NCBI GenBank assembly: GCA_963741385.1
Contig: CAVUHO010000003.1
Location: forward strand, 435,935 to 499,934
Length of the DNA stretch: 64,000 nt
Origin: Candidatus Sulfomarinibacteraceae bacterium
GTDB lineage: Bacteria; Acidobacteriota; Thermoanaerobaculia; Thermoanaerobaculales; Sulfomarinibacteraceae
Direction of reading: 5' to 3'
The notes under the pieces were generated by a model, which did no database searches, was not told the origin of the DNA, and saw only the letters and a list, made by a program, of their open reading frames with translations. Positions 4,962-62,146 of the stretch are shown in pieces (position 1 is the first letter of the stretch; every line of letters begins with the position of its first letter). The position numbers were made by a program, and so were the translations under genes.

Positions 4962-7409
<2,448 letters not shown>

Positions 7410-7411
<2 letters not shown>

Positions 7412-7449
7412 CGTTCGAACGTTCAATCGTTTGGACGTTAAACGTTGGA
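7410..7449. repeat. tandem ~8-nt AACGTTYR array (about 5 units) directly after the pyrG stop
   Basis: AACGTTCG AACGTTCA ATCGTTTG GACGTTAA ACGTTGG. CGTT recurs at 7412, 7420, 7428, 7436 and 7443. Confidence 0.8.
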
Positions 7450-7472
7450 GCGCCGATGCTAAACTTGCGGCG

Positions 7473-8306
7473 ATGATGAGCCAGGGCTTCGAAATCGTTG
7501 AAGGCATCCGGATCGGCGGCGGCGCCAGACCGGTCTATCTCGCAGGGCCGTGCGTCGTCGAGTCGCGGGACTTCGTCGTCGATGTCGCGGGCAGGGTCGC
7601 GGAGATCGCCGCCCGCCGCGGCGTGCCGCTCGTTTTCAAGGCCTCCTACGACAAGGCCAACCGCTCGTCCGAGTCGGGCTTTCGCGGATGCGGGGTTGAC
7701 GAGGGTCTCGAAGCGCTGGCCCAGGTCAAGAGGGTCACCGGTCTGCCGGTGATCACCGACGTCCACCACCCCGAGCAGGCGGCAGTGGCGGCGGCGGTAG
7801 TCGACATGCTCCAGGTGCCGGCCTTTCTGAGCCGTCAGACCGACCTCCTGCACGCGTGCGGCGCCACAGGTCTTCCGGTCAACGTCAAGAAGGGCCAGTT
7901 CCTGGCCCCCGAGGACATGGCCAACGTGGTCGAGAAGGTGCAGGCCGCGGGCAACAGCCGGGTGGTTGTGACCGAACGCGGGACGACCTTCGGCTACCAC
8001 AACCTGGTGGTGGACATGCGGGGCCTGCCCATCATGCGGCGGTTCGCCCCGGTCGTTTTTGACTGCACCCATTCGTTGCAGCTGCCCGGCGGGCTCGGCC
8101 ACGCCACCGGCGGGGCGCGCGAGTTCCACCCCTACCTGGCGCGGGCGGCGGCCGCTGCGGGCGCCGATGGATTCTTTATCGAGGTCCACCCCGATCCCCC
8201 CAACGCCCTGTCGGATGCCGCCACTCAGCTCTCGATCGACGAGTTCGACAAGTTGATCGGTCAGCTCGAGGCGGTGTCGGCGGTCGTGCGGGAGGTCGCA
8301 CCGTGA
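7473..8306 (+). CDS. kdsA: 3-deoxy-8-phosphooctulonate synthase (KDO-8-P synthase)
   Basis: FEIVEGIRIGGG..PVYLAGPCVVES...FKASYDKANRSS...DVHH...FLSRQTDLL...NVKKGQF is the KdsA pattern. Start reset to ATG 7473, because the track ORF begins inside pyrG. Confidence 0.93.
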   Translation: MMSQGFEIVEGIRIGGGARPVYLAGPCVVESRDFVVDVAGRVAEIAARRGVPLVFKASYDKANRSSESGFRGCGVDEGLEALAQVKRVTGLPVITDVHHPEQAAVAAAVVDMLQVPAFLSRQTDLLHACGATGLPVNVKKGQFLAPEDMANVVEKVQAAGNSRVVVTERGTTFGYHNLVVDMRGLPIMRRFAPVVFDCTHSLQLPGGLGHATGGAREFHPYLARAAAAAGADGFFIEVHPDPPNALSDAATQLSIDEFDKLIGQLEAVSAVVREVAP

Positions 8307-9259
8307 GCCGCGAGGTGGCGCTTCAGGTGCTGGAGGCCGAGGCCAACGCGATCCGCCATCTGATGGAGAACCTCGGCGAGGACTTCGATCGCGCGGTGGA
8401 GCTGATCGACGGCTGCGGCGGCCGCGTGGTGCTGACCGGGATGGGGAAGTCGGGCATCATCTGCCGCAAGATCGCCGCGACCATGCGGTCGACCGGGACA
8501 CCGGCCATCTTCATGCACCCGGCCGAGGCCATCCACGGCGATCTGGGAATGGTCGCAGGTGGAGATCTCGTGGTCGCCATCTCGAACTCCGGCACCACCG
8601 ACGAGATCCTCAACCTCGTGGCGGTGCTGCGACGGATAGGGGTCGTTCTGATTGCCATCACCTCGAACCCGGACTCGCCGCTGGCCACCACAGCCGATCT
8701 CCACCTCGACGTGGGTGTACGGCGCGAAGCCTGTCCCATGAACCTGGCGCCGACGGCCTCGACTACCGCCGCCCTCGCCCTCGGTGACGCCCTGGCGATG
8801 TCGGTGTCGGTCAAGAAGGGATTCAAGGAGGAGGATTTCGCGCGTCTCCACCCGGGTGGCAAGTTGGGCAAGAAATTCCTCAGGGTGCGCGACCTGATGC
8901 ACACCGGCGACGAGGTCCCGCGGGTCGAGACCGGAACGGTGATGAAGGACGTCATCTACGAGATGAGCCGCAAGGGGCTCGGCTTGACCACCGTCCAGAA
9001 CCAGGAGGGCCTGCTTCTCGGACTGGTCACCGATGGCGATTTGCGGCGGCTCATGGAACGGGACCCGGACCCCATGGCGCGGACCGCCGGTGAGGTCATG
9101 CACCACGGCGGCGCCTGCATTCCGCCGGACGAACTCGCGACCGCGGCGCTGCGCCTCCTGGAGGAAAAACGCATCACGTCACTCATGGTGAGCAACCAGG
9201 GGGAGCCGGTGCTCGGCGTGCTCCACCTCCACGATCTGTGGGGAGTAGGATTATTTTGA
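8303..9259 (+). CDS. kdsD: arabinose-5-phosphate isomerase (KpsF/GutQ family; SIS plus tandem CBS)
   Basis: SIS motif VVLTGMGKSGIICRKIAATMRSTGTPA, with tandem CBS domains at the C-terminus. GTG start overlaps the kdsA stop (GTGA). Confidence 0.9.
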   Translation: MSREVALQVLEAEANAIRHLMENLGEDFDRAVELIDGCGGRVVLTGMGKSGIICRKIAATMRSTGTPAIFMHPAEAIHGDLGMVAGGDLVVAISNSGTTDEILNLVAVLRRIGVVLIAITSNPDSPLATTADLHLDVGVRREACPMNLAPTASTTAALALGDALAMSVSVKKGFKEEDFARLHPGGKLGKKFLRVRDLMHTGDEVPRVETGTVMKDVIYEMSRKGLGLTTVQNQEGLLLGLVTDGDLRRLMERDPDPMARTAGEVMHHGGACIPPDELATAALRLLEEKRITSLMVSNQGEPVLGVLHLHDLWGVGLF

Positions 9260-9374
9260 TTTCGGATTTCGGATTTCGGATTTCGGATTTCCCGACCGCC
9301 CTCCCACCACTTCTGAACATCGGGCGGGTGGGGGACAAATCCGAAATCCGAAATCCGAAATCCGAAATTCCGAC
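9258..9374. repeat. composite element copy 1: (GATTTCG)x4 - 45-nt GC-rich core - (AAATCCG)x4, arms mutually complementary
   Basis: Read directly from the sequence. The first unit overlaps the kdsD stop codon. Core: CCCGACCGCCCTCCCACCACTTCTGAACATCGGGCGGGTGGGGGAC. Confidence 0.9.
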
Positions 9375-9386
9375 CCGGAAGGTCCG

Positions 9387-9890
9387 ATGCGCCTGACCAT
9401 ACTGACCACCGGCGGCACGATCGACAAGACCTATGATGAGCTGCAGGGCAGCCTGCGCAACGTCAACTCGATTCTCGACGTGATCCTCGACGAGCTGCGC
9501 ACGCCGGACCTTTTCATCCGGCACGTCGACGTGATGCACAAGGATTCGCTCGACATGACCGAAGAGGACCGGCAGATCATCGCCAAAGCGGTTCGAGACG
9601 CCGTCAAGAACTCCGACGCGGTGATCATTCTCCACGGCACCGACACGCTCGAGGAGACCGGTGACCTCCTGTGCAGCGAGATCGGCGACCTCGAGGTTCC
9701 GGTGATTCTCACCGGCGCCATGCGGCCGTACGAGTTTCGCGACACCGACGCCGTGCAGAATGTCACCGAGGCCCTTCTGGCGGCGCGGTTGCTCGAGGGC
9801 GGGGTCTACGTCGTGATGCACAATCGGGTGCTGCGCTTCCCGGGCGTTACCAAGGACCGGCAAGCGCTGACGTTCGTGCAGAAGGACTGA
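9387..9890 (+). CDS. single-domain L-asparaginase-like protein (N-terminal catalytic domain only)
   Basis: 167 aa with asparaginase signatures TTGGTIDK, HGTDTLEET and LTGAMRP. GGAAGG RBS. No C-terminal asparaginase domain. Confidence 0.75.
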   Translation: MRLTILTTGGTIDKTYDELQGSLRNVNSILDVILDELRTPDLFIRHVDVMHKDSLDMTEEDRQIIAKAVRDAVKNSDAVIILHGTDTLEETGDLLCSEIGDLEVPVILTGAMRPYEFRDTDAVQNVTEALLAARLLEGGVYVVMHNRVLRFPGVTKDRQALTFVQKD

Positions 9891-9895
9891 CCGGG

Positions 9896-10010
9896 TCGGA
9901 ATTTCGGATTTCGGATTTCGGATTTCGGATTTGTCCCCCACCCGCCCGACGTTCAGAAGTGGTGGGAGGGCGGTCGGGAAATCCGAAATCCAAAATTCGA
10001 AATCCGAAAT
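9896..10010. repeat. composite element copy 2: reverse complement of copy 1 with only a few mismatches
   Basis: GTCGGAATTTCGGATTTCGG...GTCCCCCACCCGCCCGACGTTCAGAAGTGGTGGGAGGGCGGTCGGG...AAATCCGAAAT. Aligns base-for-base to the reverse complement of 9258-9374 except for about 5 positions. Confidence 0.9.
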
Positions 10011-10028: not shown

Positions 10029-10541
10029 CTACTTCTCCCCGAAGTGGGTGGTGCCGCACTGGCTGAAGGTGGTTCCCGAGGTGAGCGGAAAGCGGTAGTC
10101 GGTCGCAAGAGTGAGCACCGCCGCGCAGAATGCCGGTCCGTCGGCCTCCTCGAGGTGGCTGTGGAAGTAGTAAGCGATGCGGCCGTCGGGTTCGAACAGG
10201 ACGACTGAGGTCACGGACCTGCCCGTGAGATCGAGCCGGCCCTCGCTGCGGATCTCCTCGTACAGCCGTTTCTGGAAATCGGTCCAGGCTTTCGCCACTT
10301 CGCTCTCGCTGTCCGGAAAAACGCAGTCGTTGTCTCCGACCTTGTAGGCCGCCTTGTACGCCTCCCGCATGTCGGCGATGCTGATCTCGGAGGCTTCGGC
10401 GTCGTTGACTGAGAGGCAGCGGGTGGCCGTTGGTTTGTCGTTTTCGGTGGCCGGGAGGCCGGCCGCAACCAACAAAAGCGACGTCAGAAACCCAAGCGTT
10501 CTTGAGATGCTTCGCAACGGCGCGCCTCCATGGTCAACCAT
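10029..10541 (-). CDS. hypothetical secreted protein
   Basis: Start reset to ATG 10541. Hydrophobic signal-like segment LGFLTSLLLVAAGLPA. The remainder is protein-like but carries no motif I recognise. The track's N-terminal extension translates the repeat and is not credible. Confidence 0.55.
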   Translation of the reverse strand: MVDHGGAPLRSISRTLGFLTSLLLVAAGLPATENDKPTATRCLSVNDAEASEISIADMREAYKAAYKVGDNDCVFPDSESEVAKAWTDFQKRLYEEIRSEGRLDLTGRSVTSVVLFEPDGRIAYYFHSHLEEADGPAFCAAVLTLATDYRFPLTSGTTFSQCGTTHFGEK

Positions 10542-10667
10542 AGCAGATCCTGGAGGGCGAGAATGTGACGGAGGTGACGGCACCTCCACCGCACGCGGCA
10601 CGTTTCCGCACGCGCTACCCGAGAGGAGCCACTCGGTCCCACCCTGAGCACTCGGGCGTTTATTGTC

Positions 10668-10720
10668 GGTGGGGGGTTGGGTGGAAAAATCCGAAATCCG
10701 AAATCCGAAATCCGAAATTC
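10668..10720. repeat. solo half-element: G-rich core remnant plus (AAATCCG)x4 arm
   Basis: GTCGGTGGGGGGTTGGGTGGAAAAATCCGAAATCCGAAATCCGAAATCCGAAATTC. There is no left arm. It abuts the helicase stop codon (10724). Confidence 0.85.
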
Positions 10721-10723
10721 TCC

Positions 10724-13339
10724 CTACGTCCCAATCCGCGTCACCGTCACCAACGGCCCATCCACCCTGGCGTTGTCCGAGAGATCGACCTTGCCCTCGA
10801 TGCACCACAGGTTGTCGTCGGCGGGGTCGAGCAGGACCTGCACGACCTGCCAGGCGTGGTCGCCGACTTCGGTGATCTGGGTGTGCTCCGCGAGGCGGGC
10901 GTTGTGGTCGAACCGGAGCTCGTCGTAGGCGGCGAAGAACGGCTCCAACGCCCGCGAGAAATCATCCTCGGTGACCAACGCCGCCGGTGTATCGGGGTCG
11001 TTCCGTACCGAGTCGGCGGCCTCTTCCCAATCGCGCCGCGCCAGCGCCGCCACCAGTTGGTGGAGGTCAGCGCGCAGCCGCGACGCGAGGGCCCCGGGAT
11101 TCGAGCGCAGTTCGCGCACCGCCAACAGCCTCTGCGCGACCCTCCGTTCGTCGGGCGTCTCGAGCAGGAGCTCGGGGTGCCGCATGGACTCCCACTCGTC
11201 GATCAGACTGGTGTCGACCCGCTCGAGCATGGCGCGGAAAAATGCGATCACGTCACGTACGCCTGCGGTCTTGATCTGGTCCGGGAGGTTCTGGTCGAGG
11301 GTCTTGTAGACCTGTGAAAGATAGCGCAGGAGGACGCCTTCGGATCGTTGGAGTCCGTAGCGCCGGACGTAGTCGGTAAAGCCCAGGTAGTCCTCGTACA
11401 TCTCCCGCGCAACCGACTTGGGTTGGACGACATCGCCGCCGACCCACGGGTGATCACGGAGGAAGTGATCGAAGGCAGCGTGGATGTAGTCGGCGAGGGG
11501 CTGTGGGTGGGTCACCTCGTCGAGCCGGTTCATTCGTTCGTCGTACGAAACACCCTCGGCTTTGAGCCGGTTGATGAGGTCGGTCTTCAGGCGGTCCACC
11601 TGCCGTCTGAGGACGATCACCGGGTCCTCGAGCACCGACTCCACCAGACTCAACAGGTCGAGGGCGTGCTCCGGGTTTTCGGGATCGAGACCCTCGGTCG
11701 CCTGAATGAGAAAGAGCGACAGGTTGTGAAACAGCGAGAAATCGACCTGCAGATCCTCGTCGACCACCACCCACAGATAGTGGCCGGCGGTGTCGGGCAC
11801 CATGCGAATGATGCCGGCGCGGTAGAGCGACCGCGCCAGCTGAGCTGCGCGCTCGAGATGCGACTTCTTGCCCGCATCGTCATCGTGGCAGTTGGCGATG
11901 AGCTGGCGAACGGAGTGGAAATTCCCGGCGGCGGGGTCGTTGGCAGCCGCGTCGCGCTGCAGCAGATCGACCAGCATGCCGGGGGTGATGCGGAACCGGG
12001 AGACCAACTTTTCGGGCGGGTCGACGATGAGCTTTTTGAACGTCTCCTCGGACCACGAGATCTCGCCCGGGCGAGGCGCCGTTTTCCCGGTCTTGCGCTT
12101 TTTGTTCGGGTTGGCCGCCGCCTTGCGTTGTTCCTTGAGACGTTCGATCACCTCTTCGGGGGCCTGACACACCACGCTGCCCTGGTCGTCGAAACCCTTG
12201 CGCCCGGCGCGGCCCGCGATCTGTTTGAACTCGCGCACCTTGAGCCGTGCCACCTTGCGGCCGTCAAACTTGGCGAGCTTGGTGAACAGCACGGTCCGCA
12301 GCGGGATGTTGATGCCGACCCCGAGGGTGTCGGTTCCCGAGATCACCTTGAGCAGACCGGCCTGGGCCAGTTGCTCCACCTGAAGGCGGTACTTCGGCAA
12401 CAGGCCGGCGTGGTGGACGCCGATGCCGAAACCGAGGAAGCGCTTGAACTCCTTGCCGTACGGGGTGTCGAAACGGGTGTTGCCGACGGCCTCGCGGATG
12501 GCGGTCTTCTCTTCTTTGGTCGTCAGCTGCATGCTGGTCAGTTTCTGGGCGGTTTCGGCGCAGTCACGCTGCGTGAAGTTGACCAGGTAGATGGGCGCCT
12601 TGGACTCGCCCGCGAGTTCTTCGATGGTCTCGTGGAGCGGCGTCTCCCGGTACGAGAAATCGAGCGGCACCGGCCGGTCGGAGGATTGAACGAGTGCCGA
12701 TGTGCGGTCGCTCCGTTCCTCAAGCTGTTCCATGATCGAGGTCATGTCGCCGAGGGTTGCCGACATCAGGAGGAACTGGGTGCGCGGCAGGGTGATCAGC
12801 GGCACCTGCCACGCCCACCCGCGGTCGCGGTCGGCGTAGTAGTGGAACTCGTCCATGATCACGTACGGTGCCTCGAGGTCCGGGCCCAGCCGCAGAGAGA
12901 GGTTCGCCAGGACCTCGGCGGTACAGCAGATCACCGAAGCCTCCGGGTTGATGCTGGCGTCGCCGGTGAGCATGCCCACGTTGTCGGCGCCGAGCTCGGC
13001 GCACAGTGCGAAGAACTTCTCGCTCGCCAGGGCCTTGATCGGCGTCGTGTAGTAGCTGCGCCGGCCCTCGCACAGGCCGCGGAACTGCAACCCGAGCGCT
13101 ACCAGCGACTTACCGGATCCTGTCGGGGTGTCGAGCACGACGTGGCGGTCGGCCATGAGCTCGAGCAGCGCCTCTTCCTGCGCCGGGTAGAGCTCGAAAC
13201 CGGTGTCCGCGACCCAGCCGAGAAAGAGATCGAGGATGGTGTCCGGATCGTGCGTTCCGCCTTGAGGGATGCGCGATCCGAGCGAGGCGATCGTGGACGC
13301 AGCGCCGTCGCCGTCGGTCGTGATCGTTTCGTCGGACAT
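10724..13339 (-). CDS. DEAD/DEAH-box (Ski2-like) helicase with large C-terminal DUF3516-type region
   Basis: 871 aa. Walker A DTPTGSGKS, DEFH box, SAT motif, and the helicase C motif HHAGLLP..QIAGRAGRKG. Confidence 0.9.
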   Translation of the reverse strand: MSDETITTDGDGAASTIASLGSRIPQGGTHDPDTILDLFLGWVADTGFELYPAQEEALLELMADRHVVLDTPTGSGKSLVALGLQFRGLCEGRRSYYTTPIKALASEKFFALCAELGADNVGMLTGDASINPEASVICCTAEVLANLSLRLGPDLEAPYVIMDEFHYYADRDRGWAWQVPLITLPRTQFLLMSATLGDMTSIMEQLEERSDRTSALVQSSDRPVPLDFSYRETPLHETIEELAGESKAPIYLVNFTQRDCAETAQKLTSMQLTTKEEKTAIREAVGNTRFDTPYGKEFKRFLGFGIGVHHAGLLPKYRLQVEQLAQAGLLKVISGTDTLGVGINIPLRTVLFTKLAKFDGRKVARLKVREFKQIAGRAGRKGFDDQGSVVCQAPEEVIERLKEQRKAAANPNKKRKTGKTAPRPGEISWSEETFKKLIVDPPEKLVSRFRITPGMLVDLLQRDAAANDPAAGNFHSVRQLIANCHDDDAGKKSHLERAAQLARSLYRAGIIRMVPDTAGHYLWVVVDEDLQVDFSLFHNLSLFLIQATEGLDPENPEHALDLLSLVESVLEDPVIVLRRQVDRLKTDLINRLKAEGVSYDERMNRLDEVTHPQPLADYIHAAFDHFLRDHPWVGGDVVQPKSVAREMYEDYLGFTDYVRRYGLQRSEGVLLRYLSQVYKTLDQNLPDQIKTAGVRDVIAFFRAMLERVDTSLIDEWESMRHPELLLETPDERRVAQRLLAVRELRSNPGALASRLRADLHQLVAALARRDWEEAADSVRNDPDTPAALVTEDDFSRALEPFFAAYDELRFDHNARLAEHTQITEVGDHAWQVVQVLLDPADDNLWCIEGKVDLSDNARVDGPLVTVTRIGT

Positions 13340-14320
13340 TCAGACCCGCATCCCGTCGAGACGACCGCCGACGATCTGTCGCGCTTCCTCCATGATGGTG
13401 TCCATGAGCTCGCGTACGGTGGGGATGTCGTGAACCAGCCCCACCGATTGTCCGGCCGGCATCAGCCCGACGTCGATCTCACCGTCCTTCAGCATGCGCA
13501 GACCGTTCTTGCCGGTGACCAGGGGGGCGAGCTCCGCGATCCCGGCGCCGTGACTCTCCAATTCGACGACCTTTTCCGCAACCTCGTTGCGCAGCACCCG
13601 TTCGGTGTTGCGCAGTGACCGCATCACGAACATGGTGTCGGTCTCGGTTGCCTCAACCAGCCAGTTCTTGACGTTGATGTGGGCCGGGGCCTCCTGCGTG
13701 GCGACGAAACGGGTGCCGAGATTCATGGCCTCGGCGCCCAGCGCCAGCGCCGCCACCAGACCGCGGGCGTCGGCAAAACCTCCCGAGGCGATCACCGGGA
13801 TTTTGACCGCATCGACCGTCACCGGGATCAACACCAACGAGGTCACATCGTCTTCGCCGGGGTGGCCGGCGCACTCGCAGCCGTCGATGCTGACGAAGTC
13901 GCAGCCGATCGACTCCGCCTTCCTGGCGAACCGCACTGAGGTGCACTTGTGGATGACCTTGGCGCCGCCCGCCTTGATTCGTTCGATGTAGGGCTCGGGA
14001 TTGCGTCCGGCGGTCTCGACGATCGTGATGCCCTCGTCGACGATCACGTCGATGAGGCTGCCGTAGTCCTTGGGCACCAGGGTCGGGAGAAAGGTCAGGT
14101 TGACCCCGAAAGGCCGATCGGTGAGCGCCCGGGTCCGGGCGATGGCGTCTGCGAGCCCCTCGGCAGTCTCGAACGTGAGAGCAGTGAGAACCCCGAGCCC
14201 GCCGGCTTCCGACACCGCCGCCACCAGCTCCGGCTGCGACACCCACATCATCCCGCCCTGAATGATCGGGTGGTCGATACCGAGTTCCTCGGTCACCCTG
14301 GTCCTGAATACCTGCTTCAT
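13340..14320 (-). CDS. nitronate monooxygenase / FabK-like NAD(P)H-dependent flavin oxidoreductase
   Basis: GIDHPIIQGGMMWVS...VIASGGFADARG...GAEAMNLGTRF is the NMO family pattern. Start reset to ATG 14320, preceded by GAGGGAGAA. The stop abuts the helicase start. Confidence 0.85.
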   Translation of the reverse strand: MKQVFRTRVTEELGIDHPIIQGGMMWVSQPELVAAVSEAGGLGVLTALTFETAEGLADAIARTRALTDRPFGVNLTFLPTLVPKDYGSLIDVIVDEGITIVETAGRNPEPYIERIKAGGAKVIHKCTSVRFARKAESIGCDFVSIDGCECAGHPGEDDVTSLVLIPVTVDAVKIPVIASGGFADARGLVAALALGAEAMNLGTRFVATQEAPAHINVKNWLVEATETDTMFVMRSLRNTERVLRNEVAEKVVELESHGAGIAELAPLVTGKNGLRMLKDGEIDVGLMPAGQSVGLVHDIPTVRELMDTIMEEARQIVGGRLDGMRV

Positions 14321-14427
14321 GATTCTCCCTCGATGGCTGCGCGCCGAATCAGGCAAGAAGGTAGCATGACGGCTCCGAAAGCTCGGAAGCGCATGCTGGA
14401 GATCGAAGCCAGTCAGCACTGGCCGGC

Positions 14428-14459
14428 AATTCAAAATTGAGAATTCAAAATTCAAAACT
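14428..14459. repeat. heptamer array AATTCAA AATTGAG AATTCAA AATTCAA AACTC
   Basis: 7-nt periodicity read directly from the sequence. The same unit type occurs at 21562-21599 and 54769-54797. Confidence 0.85.
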
Positions 14460-14497
14460 CTCAACTGAACGGCGCCGAACAGCGCCGTTCAGTTGAG
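14460..14497 (-). terminator. perfect 16-bp hairpin overlapping the pentapeptide-gene stop, followed on the minus strand by a T-rich heptamer tail
   Basis: CTCAACTGAACGGCGC-cgaaca-GCGCCGTTCAGTTGAG. On the minus strand it is followed by AGTTTTGAATTTTGAATTCTCAATTTTGAATT. Confidence 0.6.
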
Positions 14498-15550
14498 GTA
14501 GTACTCCTGAAGCATCGTCAGCAAGACCGCCTCCCGGTCCGCCGGCCGGACCAATGGGTCTTCTTCGATCTGGGCGCGGAAGCCGGCCACGATCCGCGGG
14601 TCGACCATTTCCAGCACGTCCTCAGGGCGGGAGATACCGCCTTGACGGCGCAGCGCGGCGGCCGTGCCCGAGGGCAGCCCATCGGTGTTGACGAACCACG
14701 CCCTCTCGGCCTTGCCGGGCTCGATGCGGGCGCCGGTCAGGTTGGCCCCCGTGAGGTTGACGTCGTGCATGCTTTCCACGTCGCCGAAGTCGGACCCGAC
14801 CGCCGAGGCGAGGGTGAAGTCGGCGCGGTCGAAGCGCGCAGACGGGAACTTCGAAGCAAAGAGGTTGGCCTGGGCGAGCTCGGCGCCGGCGAAGTTGGCG
14901 AGCGTGAGGTCGTCGAGCTGGGTGAGGGAAGCATCCACCAGCACGGTGTCCTCGAAGACGGCGCCCACCCCGTGGATTCCGGTGAGGATTGCGCTGGACA
15001 GCACGGCCTGATTGAACGAGGCGCGGCTGACGTCCGCGTTCTTGAGATTGGCGCGGGGCATCTCGGCGAGTCGGAAGTTGGCGTCGGACAGATTGCAGTC
15101 CGAAAAATCGGTGCCCGTGAGTTCGGCCCCCGAAAAGTCAGCGGCCCGGAGATCGAGCCCCGACAGGTCGCGGTGGGCAAGGTTGTAGGTCAAAAAGTGG
15201 GTGGCCCTGCGGAGGGCGTTGAACTGACTGACGTCGCCGTTGCGCAGCAGGGTCATCGCGTAGTCCATGTGGTGAGCATAGAGCCGCGGCATGTACTGGA
15301 GGGCGAGGTAGTGGCTGAGTTCGAACGGGACTCCGTCTTTCATGGCGTTGGTCGCCGCCGCCAACTCGTCCTCCAGCAGGGTGGCTATCTCGTCGATCTG
15401 GTGGTTGTGGAAGCTGCGTTGGAGATGGTTGACGCGAAGCAGGCCATTGACCTCGTTGTACGCCATGGAGCCGACCGCGGTCGCCGCGATGCCCAGAATG
15501 AAGCCGAAGATCATGCCTTCCCAACGCCCCAATCGATCGATGAAGGTCAT
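14489..15550 (-). CDS. pentapeptide-repeat protein with N-terminal TM helix
   Basis: Long A(D/N)LxG-type repeats (LSGLDLRAADFSGAELTGTDFSDCNLSDANFRLAEM...). N-terminal helix MIFGFILGIAATAVGSMAY. Start reset to ATG 15550 after AAGGAGAA. Confidence 0.85.
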   Translation of the reverse strand: MTFIDRLGRWEGMIFGFILGIAATAVGSMAYNEVNGLLRVNHLQRSFHNHQIDEIATLLEDELAAATNAMKDGVPFELSHYLALQYMPRLYAHHMDYAMTLLRNGDVSQFNALRRATHFLTYNLAHRDLSGLDLRAADFSGAELTGTDFSDCNLSDANFRLAEMPRANLKNADVSRASFNQAVLSSAILTGIHGVGAVFEDTVLVDASLTQLDDLTLANFAGAELAQANLFASKFPSARFDRADFTLASAVGSDFGDVESMHDVNLTGANLTGARIEPGKAERAWFVNTDGLPSGTAAALRRQGGISRPEDVLEMVDPRIVAGFRAQIEEDPLVRPADREAVLLTMLQEYYLN

Positions 15551-15575
15551 GGCGGTTCTCCTTGCGACGATGGTA

Positions 15576-15637
15576 GCAGGAGGGCGGGGGAGCGGGGGAG
15601 AAAGGGAGAAAGGGAGAAAGGGAGCAGGGGAGAGGGC
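15576..15637. repeat. polypurine ~8-nt array (GGGAGAAA-like, about 6 units)
   Basis: GGGGGAGC GGGGGAGA AAGGGAGA AAGGGAGA AAGGGAGC AGGGGAGA. GGGAG recurs every 8 nt from 15596 to 15632. Confidence 0.85.
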
Positions 15638-15669
15638 TGCCGGGATGGGAAGCACCTGAATACGAAACC

Positions 15670-21480: not shown

Positions 21481-21599
21481 TTCGGAATTCGGAATTCGGA
21501 ATTCGGAATTTTTCCACCTGCTCTGAACGGGTGGATGTTGAAGCAGGTTGGATGCTTCCATAATTCAAAATTAAGAATTCAAAACTCAAAATTGAAAAA
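21481..21599. repeat. composite element: (TTCGGAA)x4 - core with CCACC..CTGAAC..GGTGG hairpin - (AATTCAA/AATTAAG/AACTCAA/AATTGAA) array
   Basis: Read directly from the sequence. The core TTCCACCTGCTCTGAACGGGTGGATG resembles the core of element 9258-9374. Confidence 0.85.
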
Positions 21600-54690: not shown

Positions 54691-54814
54691 GAATTCTCAA
54701 TTATGAATTCTTAATTTTGAATTCCCGCCCGCCCACCCCCAAGGTGCGGATCGCTGCGAAAGGGTGCCGGAATTGAGAATTCATAATTCAAAATTGGAGG
54801 GGCGTGAGCCCCTC
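54691..54814. repeat. composite element: AATT-type heptamer arms (imperfectly complementary) around a C-rich core, followed by GAGGGGC-gtga-GCCCCTC hairpin
   Basis: Left arm GAATTCT CAATTAT GAATTCT TAATTTT GAATTCC. Core CGCCCGCCCACCCCCAAGGTGCGG.... Right arm GGAATTGAG AATTCAT AATTCAA AATTGG. Hairpin at 54797-54814. Confidence 0.85.
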
Positions 54815-61802: not shown

Positions 61803-61807
61803 AAAGC

Positions 61808-62144
61808 CAAGGTTTACAGGTTCCAGGTTGCAGGATCCAGGTCGCCGGTTTCAGCTCTGAAGGTGGGCCAAGGCCCACCACCCTCAAGCTGTCATCCCGA
61901 CCGAGGGAGCGAAGCGATCGAGTGGAGGGATCCCTCCGCTGCGGCCCTCCGGGCCTCCGGTCGGGATGACAGGAATTGCGACTGCCTTCGGAATGAAAAC
62001 GACCCGAGAGAATTACCTCTTCCGAGTCGTTCCTGTGGTGCAGGCGTCCCGCCTGCACGTGCGGCCGGGACGGCCGCACCAAAATGCTCCCGTGTATCAG
62101 CGGCTACCCAAGCCCCAAGCCCCTCAAGCCTCAAGCCCCAAGCC
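61808..62144. repeat. 340-bp compound repeat region: CAGGTTN heptamer array, several GC hairpins, an 84-bp element with 15-bp terminal inverted repeats, and a CAAGCCC-type heptamer array
   Basis: Left array 61808-61846. Hairpin GGTGGGCC-aa-GGCCCACC at 61862-79. Inverted repeat CTGTCATCCCGACCG (61889-903) / CGGTCGGGATGACAG (61958-72). Tandem hairpins at 62038-58 and 62059-79. Right array 62107-62144. Confidence 0.85.
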
Positions 62145-62146
62145 TT

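Follow-up and report, generated by a model that had tools for sequence, protein, structure and literature searches.

Heptameric tandem repeats were reported in 2007 to be in excess in bacterial genomes (PMC4692102, PMC4679880, both in excerpt); according to PMC4692102, published in 2015, the excess had yet to be explained and a detailed study of such repeats was lacking at that time. According to the same excerpts (Rehm et al. 2015, PMC4692102), the GGGAATC arrays of Xanthomonas mostly contain 4 units, form 70-75 close convergent pairs and vary between close species, 89-93 % of them being intergenic, at 28 nt on average from the end of the upstream open reading frame (ORF) as against 160 nt to the next one. 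Among further cases, Calothrix PCC 7601 has three tandem heptanucleotides, Nostoc PCC 7120 has GGGGA(C/T)T repeats and the Beggiatoaceae have TAACTGA repeats (PMC4679880), and polymerase slippage on 7-nt units has been proposed as the origin of such repeats (excerpts of PMC4679880 and PMC4692102). Also comparable are the repetitive extragenic palindromes (REP) and the bacterial interspersed mosaic elements (BIME), for which roles in mRNA stabilisation and termination have been proposed (PMC3733652, in the part available). Here we analyse two elements of about 115 nt (element 1 and element 2) which bracket a short asparaginase gene downstream of kdsD in a 64-kb stretch of a Candidatus Sulfomarinibacteraceae genome (Acidobacteriota; contig CAVUHO010000003.1), this whole stretch being called the window hereafter.

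Our main conclusion, to which we give a probability of roughly 0.75, is that both elements belong to a family of palindromic heptamer microsatellites which fill the spacers behind stop codons, that the asparaginase gene between them is syntenic, and that the near-identical pair is recent and lineage-specific. An element of this family starts with 4-6 AT-rich heptamers in tandem and a C-rich arm; beyond a short loop, a G-rich arm leads into 4-6 heptamers of the reverse-complement sequence. The asparaginase is a fixed, syntenic chromosomal gene, and the elements around it turn over fast, by changes of unit, by gain and loss of whole heptamers, and by deletion of half or nearly all of the hairpin. 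Such elements fill the short post-stop spacers of this Acidobacteriota lineage, which probably belongs to the Thermoanaerobaculia.

By analogy, the pair-forming heptamers of Xanthomonas are the closest known relatives in kind. As far as the excerpts of that report go, they share with the elements described here 7-nt units in about 4 copies, convergent pairs, a position just past the upstream ORF and variation between close relatives; they differ in having a single G-rich consensus (GGGANTN), studied for its ability to form G-quadruplexes (PMC4692102). In the window, unlike in Xanthomonas, the units are AT-rich and site-specific, with G-runs confined to the palindromic core, and those excerpts describe no GC-rich core. 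The cyanobacterial and Beggiatoaceae repeats are likewise intergenic-enriched tandem heptamers occurring across scattered phyla, whereas the TAACTGA arrays are direct repeats lying mostly just upstream of start codons, with one inverted case and without the array-core-array palindrome (PMC4679880). REP and BIME sequences resemble our elements in being imperfect palindromes placed in short spacers at gene 3' ends and between cistrons, but REPs measure 20-40 bp, with a conserved sequence and a GTAG/CGTC tag, whereas the present elements are ~115 nt long, tagless and variable from site to site. REP and BIME sequences are on this analogy the nearest functional parallel, with defining features that our elements do not share.

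The element pair and its syntenic relatives

The inverted-repeat arms span 127 nt each (9259-9385 against 9884-10010), are 95 % complementary and have 498 nt between them. Aligned with the reverse complement of element 2, element 1 shows 5 differences in 117 columns (7 in 128 when the inner flank is included), and the duplicated part of this flank is 11 nt long (TTCCGACCCGG at 9369-9379 against CCGGGTCGGAA at 9889-9899). The TGA of the kdsD-like ORF (9257-9259) overlaps the first heptamer of element 1; the asparaginase ORF starts 12 nt past element 1, and 5 nt separate its end from element 2. The initial annotation, which had reported near-identical inverted elements of ~115 bp bracketing a single ORF, the overlap with the kdsD stop, the two distances and a shared tetranucleotide flank, is borne out in all these points, the flank being longer than was claimed; it had overlooked the palindromy of each element, as well as the further copies and relatives elsewhere in the window.

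Each element is itself a palindrome: about five AT-rich heptamers and a C-rich arm stand on one side of a loop, and a G-rich arm with about five reverse-complement heptamers stands on the other. In element 1, Tandem Repeats Finder (TRF) delimits (GATTTCG)x4.9 at 9258-9291 (100 %) and (AAATCCG)x5.1 at 9337-9373, on both sides of a 45-nt core (9292-9336; C-rich arm, loop, G-rich arm); in element 2, the arrays lie at 9896-9932 (x5.1) and 9978-10010 (x4.7, 84 %), and the core at 9933-9977. The core sequence of the elements is CCCGACCGCCCTCCCACC...GGGCGGGTGGGGGAC. The arms within each element measure 47 nt (9259-9305/9322-9368 and 9901-9947/9964-10010) and are 87 % and 83 % complementary, respectively. 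Because the element is a palindrome, both of its strands read alike, with a U-rich array and a C-rich arm ahead of the loop and a G-rich arm and an A-rich array behind it. The predicted folding energies are -78.5 kcal/mol (z = -8.4) on the plus strand and -76.9 on the minus strand for element 1, -69.8 and -66.6 for element 2. The predicted stem of each element is ~45 bp long. Rfam gives 0 matches over the whole window at the gathering threshold, and a permissive Rfam scan yields just sub-threshold matches to generic long hairpins (microRNA precursors). With up to 3 mismatches allowed, an array 20-mer matches the window 16 times, and 100 shuffles gave no match.

Orthologous loci were fetched by exact-protein look-up plus one metagenome scan; several of the comparison contigs are short. 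Over ~20 syntenic loci, with 72-98 % protein identity, the order kdsA-kdsD-asparaginase is fixed, and the asparaginase ORF is co-directional with kdsD in all of them. Wherever the contig suffices, the layout is pyrG, kdsA, kdsD, a spacer of ~130 nt, the asparaginase gene and a second spacer of 35-165 nt. Both spacers are occupied by an element of this kind in nearly every syntenic relative (in some cases by just a single array or a remnant), and homologs below ~70 % identity lie in other gene contexts, with no arrays. The nearest named relatives are one locus labelled Thermoanaerobaculales (L211; comparison loci carry L-numbers) and a Sulfomarinibacteraceae metagenome-assembled genome (MAG; L018).

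The units found at the two sites differ between relatives (Table 1) and are joined in a network of single substitutions (GATTTCG, GGAATTA, GGAATGA, GAATTCG, GAATTTT, GAGTTTT, TAGTTTT). Of the 23 two-array elements, 16 have arms whose consensus units are complementary with at most 1 mismatch, and among the upstream variants of the relatives the kdsD stop abuts or overlaps the first heptamer in 13/13. Chimeric elements occur upstream in L131 and downstream in L211, and array-only or remnant states in L132. L121, whose genes share ~90 % DNA identity with those of the window, has an orthologous downstream element that differs by substitutions and by indels, which include at least one whole heptamer; the upstream elements are unrelated. 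L208 carries element 1 with the same core upstream, together with a downstream element that has lost its right half; the downstream element of L209 is likewise half-deleted. L212 also has element 1 with the same core upstream, its downstream element being reduced to ~14 nt with part of the right array kept. This near-excision in L212 left no duplicated flank or target-site-like scar, and the deletion endpoints fall inside the arrays.

Regarding the origin of the pair, local alignment of the upstream and downstream elements of the window scores 225 in the inverted and 104 in the direct orientation, and the same comparison in 11 relatives reveals no consistent relation between the two sites. On these alignments, the matching inverted pair is confined to the lineage of the window and appears to be recent, not a conserved device. 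In L155, L208 and L209 the CCGGG beside the ORF stop is a native part of the downstream site, and the GATTTCG element with this core is found downstream in all close lineages and upstream only in some. From both observations it follows most simply that the downstream copy would be ancestral and that the upstream one would be a recent inverted duplicate, 11 nt of flank included, replacing an element with another unit.

Some observations concern the comparison contigs themselves. L208 and L209 have an identical protein and identical downstream DNA, with different upstream elements; this mismatch, as well as the structure of L120 (Logan SRR34731996), reflects either chimeric assembly or recombination whose breakpoints fall at the elements. 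With its 100 %-identical protein, L120 was considered for dating the upstream replacement and was rejected as a mosaic, its ORF being 99 % identical and its kdsD only ~72 %. In L212 a run of N (a scaffold gap) lies exactly inside the upstream hairpin, such elements being prone to break short-read assemblies.

Elements and genes elsewhere in the window, and arrays in other phyla

A census of the family over the 64-kb window of the source genome places heptamer arrays at 9 or more sites, all of them directly 3' of a gene and often overlapping its stop codon. TRF reports period-7 arrays of x4.3-5.3 copies at 9258, 9337, 9896, 9978, 10687, 21481, 21562 and 54691, and the arrays begin 0-13 nt past stop codons. 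None of the 5 divergent gaps in the window (on a rough gene map, corrected by eye at 21.1-21.5 kb) has an array. Between pyrG and the helicase gene, 4 of the 5 consecutive gene junctions hold an array element, so that a short gene in this stretch gets bracketed by elements almost by default.

Cores and units are not uniform across the window sites, and at several of them an ordinary GC hairpin stands separately beside the array. One such site is the element at 21481, which starts 1 nt past a TAG stop and has its separate GC hairpin behind it; in the element at 54691 the arms measure 25 nt and are 88 % complementary. The half element behind the helicase gene matches the Sulfomarinibacteraceae MAG at 86 %, and its ortholog in L121 has ~13 units, against 4.6 in the window.

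By eye, many core loops (window 9292-9336 and 21511-21560; L121, L125, L126, L129, L209, L211) give the impression of being TGA-bearing (TCTGAAC, TTCAGAT, CTGATGA, CTGATCA, GTGAATGAGTCA) and of standing between arms rich in C (CCCNCCC) and in G (GGGNGGG). Between the two arrays of the convergent gap at 61.8-62.15 kb lie an 84-nt GC-rich palindrome (61889-61972, with 42-nt arms, 74 %) and a 46-nt palindrome (62036-62081). A tandem repeat of 8 nt, (GGGAGAAA)x4.8, is present at 15596-15633, at the 5' end of the pentapeptide-repeat gene region.

Several of the units contain no stop codon, and mechanical ORF calling therefore reads on across the arrays (9183-9941, 10029-10808 and 13340-14464, all on the minus strand, and other entries of the ORF list). 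The spurious array-encoded peptides that result (SEIRNPKSEIRNPK, ISDFGFRISDF, LNFEFSILN) are a likely source of false hypothetical proteins.

Table 1. Elements, genes and arrays at the kdsD-asparaginase locus, elsewhere in the window and in comparison loci (positions refer to the window unless a locus is named; upstream and downstream are the two spacers of the asparaginase gene)
Feature	Location	Strand	Description
Element 1	9258..9374	.	palindromic heptamer-array hairpin in kdsD-asparaginase spacer
Element 2	9896..10010	.	reverse complement of element 1; fills the space between the asparaginase gene and the 170-aa gene convergent with it
Inner flank of element 1	9369..9385	.	begins TTCCGACCCGG; reverse complement of 9884-9900, beside ORF stop codon
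KdsD-like arabinose-5-phosphate isomerase	8303..9259	+	SIS + CBS domains (Pfam)
Putative short-chain L-asparaginase, RrA-type, 167 aa	9387..9890	+	PF00710, N-terminal domain only
170-aa ORF, convergent	10029..10541	-	stop 18 nt from element 2; 155-170-aa gene in relatives
Third member, half element	10640..10719	-	(GATTTCG)x4.6 then C-rich arm, without right-hand array; after helicase stop (10724)
(GAACGTT)-type array	7409..7446	+	begins at pyrG stop codon; orthologous in L121 with substitutions
(TTTTGAA)-type array	14422..14500	-	after GC hairpin containing stop of pentapeptide-repeat gene (14489-15655, -)
Family member	21481..21598	+	(TTCGGAA)x4.3, core CCACC..TCTGAAC..GGGTGG, (AATTCAA)x5.3
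Family member	54691..54800	+	(GAATTCT)-type array, C-rich/G-rich core, inverted array; overlaps upstream gene's TGA
Convergent gap	61803..62146	.	(CAGGTTC)x3.7 at 61817-61842; (CCCAAGC)x5.1 at 62107-62144; one array behind each gene
In-frame arrays	L029:2466-6107, L097:2102-5038 (-), L119:5582-7789		class I aminoacyl-tRNA synthetases; Pfam-verified
In-frame array	L098:1-7998	-	just before ketosynthase (KS) and acyltransferase (AT) domains of polyketide synthase-nonribosomal peptide synthetase (PKS-NRPS)
In-frame arrays	L114:5058-8000, L026		just before GDE_N domain
Unit GATTTCG	upstream: window, L208, L212; downstream: window, L121-L124, L155, L208-L210
Unit GGAATTA / GGAATGA	upstream: L121-L125, L129-L131; downstream: L125, L129, L130, L134
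Unit GAATTTT	upstream: L126, L211
Unit GAGTTTT	upstream: L209, L210
Unit TTTTGAG / TTTTTAG	upstream: L128
Unit GAATTCT / GAATTCG	upstream: L134
TAGTTTT-type element	upstream: L120		mosaic contig

The 167-residue ORF between the elements matches PF00710 (Asparaginase, N-terminal) with E = 1.2e-34 over residues 2-156 and contains the motifs TTGGTIDK, HGTDT and GAMRP, in agreement with the initial description of asparaginase catalytic motifs without a C-terminal domain. It has 1833 homologs, nearly all of 166-170 residues, and does not reach the cut-offs set for full-length asparaginase and GatD models; its best matches in the PDB are 185-residue chains named Asparaginase (8UOO series), with E = 1e-19. 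The code 8UOO is cited in the paper on the Rhodospirillum rubrum enzyme (RrA), which is the prototype of the short-chain L-asparaginase family (PMC10949315). With RrA-type enzymes the ORF shares a length of ~170 residues, homology to the N-terminal domain of class 1 enzymes and the motifs TGGTI, HGTDT and GAMRP (PMC10949315); it differs in being only moderately similar to the solved 185-residue chains. On this basis the ORF is an ordinary, putative short-chain L-asparaginase of the RrA family and, because RrA-type enzymes are short-chain, the missing C-terminal domain is a family trait and not a truncation.

The gene order kdsB-like (CTP_transf_3), pyrG, kdsA, kdsD and asparaginase, at 4962-9890 of the window, is kept down to ~72 % protein identity. 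The asparaginase is always the last gene of this cluster for the synthesis of 3-deoxy-D-manno-octulosonate (KDO), which hints at a functional link. The convergent 170-residue ORF has no Pfam or NCBIfam match.

More widely, an exact 26-nt (GATTTCG)n probe matched more than 119 stretches in species-representative genomes, nearly all of them MAGs; the phyla among the matches listed are Verrucomicrobiota, Planctomycetota, Chloroflexota, Bacteroidota, Patescibacteria, Gemmatimonadota, Acidobacteriota and several proteobacterial groups. An inverted partner is present within 200 nt in 31 of the 140 arrays among the matches listed, and across phyla, again among those listed, 21 % of the arrays start within a few bases of the stop of a long ORF, against 4 % of random positions. 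The matches listed also include the Acidobacteria MAG SZAS-13 (JAFDVJ01), where the array is found on many contigs, and the (GATTTCG)n arrays (L001-L119) often adjoin arrays of other heptamers (GGACATC, GCGGATT, GAACGTT, GATTAGC). A literature look-up of the heptamer unit sequences returned nothing relevant.

All six frames of the (GATTTCG) unit are free of stop codons. In real genes of other phyla, counted only where verified with Pfam, (AAATCCG)n is found in frame as (SEIRNPK)n, giving inserts of the KSEIRNPKSEI type; in two Phycisphaerae MAGs the array of the aminoacyl-tRNA synthetase stands at the same position. With a 7-nt unit, each single-unit slip in an essential gene would cause a frameshift.

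Proposed mechanism and alternative explanations

We propose that either ectopic conversion or template switching during replication wrote an inverted copy of the downstream element, together with the 11 nt that flank it on the ORF side, over an earlier upstream element; since every element holds its array both ways round, two elements can pair in either orientation. Array length would change through slipped-strand mispairing, arm complementarity would be kept through template switching inside the palindrome, and selection would restrict the elements to harmless places. When transcribed, an element would place a ~45-bp stem in the kdsD-asparaginase mRNA, which might act as a REP-like block to 3'-to-5' exonucleases or as an RNase III substrate separating the cistrons, both effects being plausible and unproven. 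The pair of elements would not act as a unit.

Several points weigh against this proposal. The near-constant occupancy of both sites hints at selection, and a model of tolerated microsatellites leaves that occupancy unexplained. The direction of copying rests on parsimony across few lineages, some of the comparison contigs are mosaic (assembly chimeras or recombinants, such as L120 and L208 versus L209), and both the RNA role and the copying mechanism are inferred. At the RNA level, the folding energy at the upstream site shows no consistent difference between sense and antisense strands, the wobble-compatible differences between arms are not biased to the sense strand (22 vs 14, p = 0.24, and 12 vs 12), and transversions predominate among the arm differences. 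Because both strand tests for selection at the RNA level gave no positive sign, the complementarity of the arms is equally well explained by the origin and correction of palindromes at the DNA level.

These last results bear equally on the explanation that competes best with ours, namely that the hairpins are under selection for a function in the RNA (as sites of intercistronic processing or stabilisation, or as terminators of a non-canonical type) and that the occupancy of the sites reflects this function and not tolerance. It has in its favour the great stability of the predicted hairpins, sites that stay occupied despite the turnover of their sequence, arms that are usually complementary and a post-stop placement resembling that of REP elements (PMC3733652, in the part available). 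However, besides the lack of strand asymmetry and of a sense-strand folding advantage upstream, no U-tract follows the stem on either strand (the A-rich array stands there), and a terminator/promoter scan calls neither element. Moreover, some sites hold a single array or a remnant (L132, L208, L212), and several window sites have their own ordinary GC hairpin beside the array. The earlier suggestion that RNA stems insulate the ORF transcript is compatible with the very stable predicted hairpins and unproven; the arm differences show no sense-strand G-U bias, and the elements do not resemble intrinsic terminators. Overall, we regard a selected RNA function as possible, though doubtful.

It is unlikely, in our judgement, that a dedicated process of insertion or synthesis makes the palindromes, for example if heptamers were added from a template at the two 3' ends of a DNA break, an event whose direct outcome would be the layout of array, filler and inverted array. 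What leaves room for such a process are the arrays in multiple phyla, their 5-fold enrichment at stop codons, the in-frame (SEIRNPK)n and the unrelated units at orthologous sites. If it were true, the pair flanking the asparaginase gene would be two products of that process.

The elements could also be read as DNA-level arrays of protein-binding sites, each heptad being a cooperative site for a DNA-binding protein. Ribbon-helix-helix repressors bind heptad arrays, and the regular 7-bp period, with direct and inverted blocks of 4-6 units, would suit such a role. The units nevertheless vary from site to site and between close relatives, which a single sequence-specific protein would not tolerate, and they are located at the 3' ends of genes instead of at promoters, making this role very improbable.

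We consider it equally improbable that a mobile cassette is involved, either with the elements as terminal inverted repeats of a composite that imported the asparaginase gene (an interpretation offered in the initial annotation) or with each element as an independently transposed miniature inverted-repeat transposable element (MITE). Two near-identical copies and a related half copy do lie within 1.5 kb, and the identical heptamer array is found in many phyla. Yet the asparaginase gene is syntenic in the relatives regardless of matching flanks, and the same-site ORF accompanied by flanking elements that are mutually unrelated, half-deleted or almost excised refutes the cassette; the large, length-conserved family of the enzyme also opposes it. 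Units and cores vary by site, so that there is no uniform family of copies, and the arrays vary by whole heptamers, as microsatellites do. No target-site duplications are found, and the deletion in L212 ends within the arrays. REP elements are mobilised by RAYT transposases; Pfam scans of the 14 predicted proteins at 1.9-19.3 kb revealed no RAYT and no recombinase or transposase domain (3 proteins matched no family), in line with the earlier remark that no recombinase gene lies nearby. MITEs of the Correia and ERIC types are similarly small and non-coding, with inverted ends and a hairpin on transcription, but the present elements differ from them by the missing target-site duplication, by having no uniform multi-copy consensus and by a microsatellite-type length polymorphism.

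A further idea of the initial annotation, that the repeats (here measured at 127 nt) flip the segment with the ORF (here 498 nt) and so switch asparaginase expression relative to the kds operon, has even less to recommend it. The repeats are long and 95 % identical, a length which could in principle support homologous inversion, and invertons likewise have inverted repeats around a short segment. Against an orientation switch stand the single orientation in the ~20 syntenic loci, the lineage-specific nature of the matching pair, and the unchanged ORF orientation in L208 and L212, which keep element 1 and have lost half or nearly all of element 2. The scans of the same 14 proteins revealed no invertase, and the segment holds a whole gene instead of a promoter. 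Compared with invertons, the locus differs in its fixed orientation, in the lack of a nearby invertase, in its longer and self-palindromic repeats and in the complete gene inside. Occasional RecA-mediated inversion is possible; nothing points to a switch.

Finally, hairpins do disturb assembly (as in L212 and L120), but the notion that one copy was mis-joined or duplicated is the least credible of all, since both copies have unique flanks on both sides within a 606-kb contig and independent assemblies reproduce each of them in place, the upstream one in L208 and L212, the downstream one in L121-L124, L155 and L210.

Implications for the lineage

For the locus itself the result is deflationary, with neither a phase switch nor a cassette, and annotation should treat the asparaginase gene as an ordinary member of the RrA type that ends the KDO cluster. 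In practice the elements interrupt assemblies, give rise to chimeric contigs and lead to spurious ORFs (e.g. SEIRNPKSEIRNPK peptides). Heptamer-palindrome elements are of a kind that is already known but poorly understood, and their presence is ordinary for this lineage. What the lineage offers is an unusually clean comparative series, with fixed orthologous sites, flanking genes that are 72-98 % identical, and the same architecture built from differing units. As this series includes expansion, half-deletion and overwriting, it makes testable both the choice between slippage with palindrome correction and active insertion, and the effect of the elements on mRNA.

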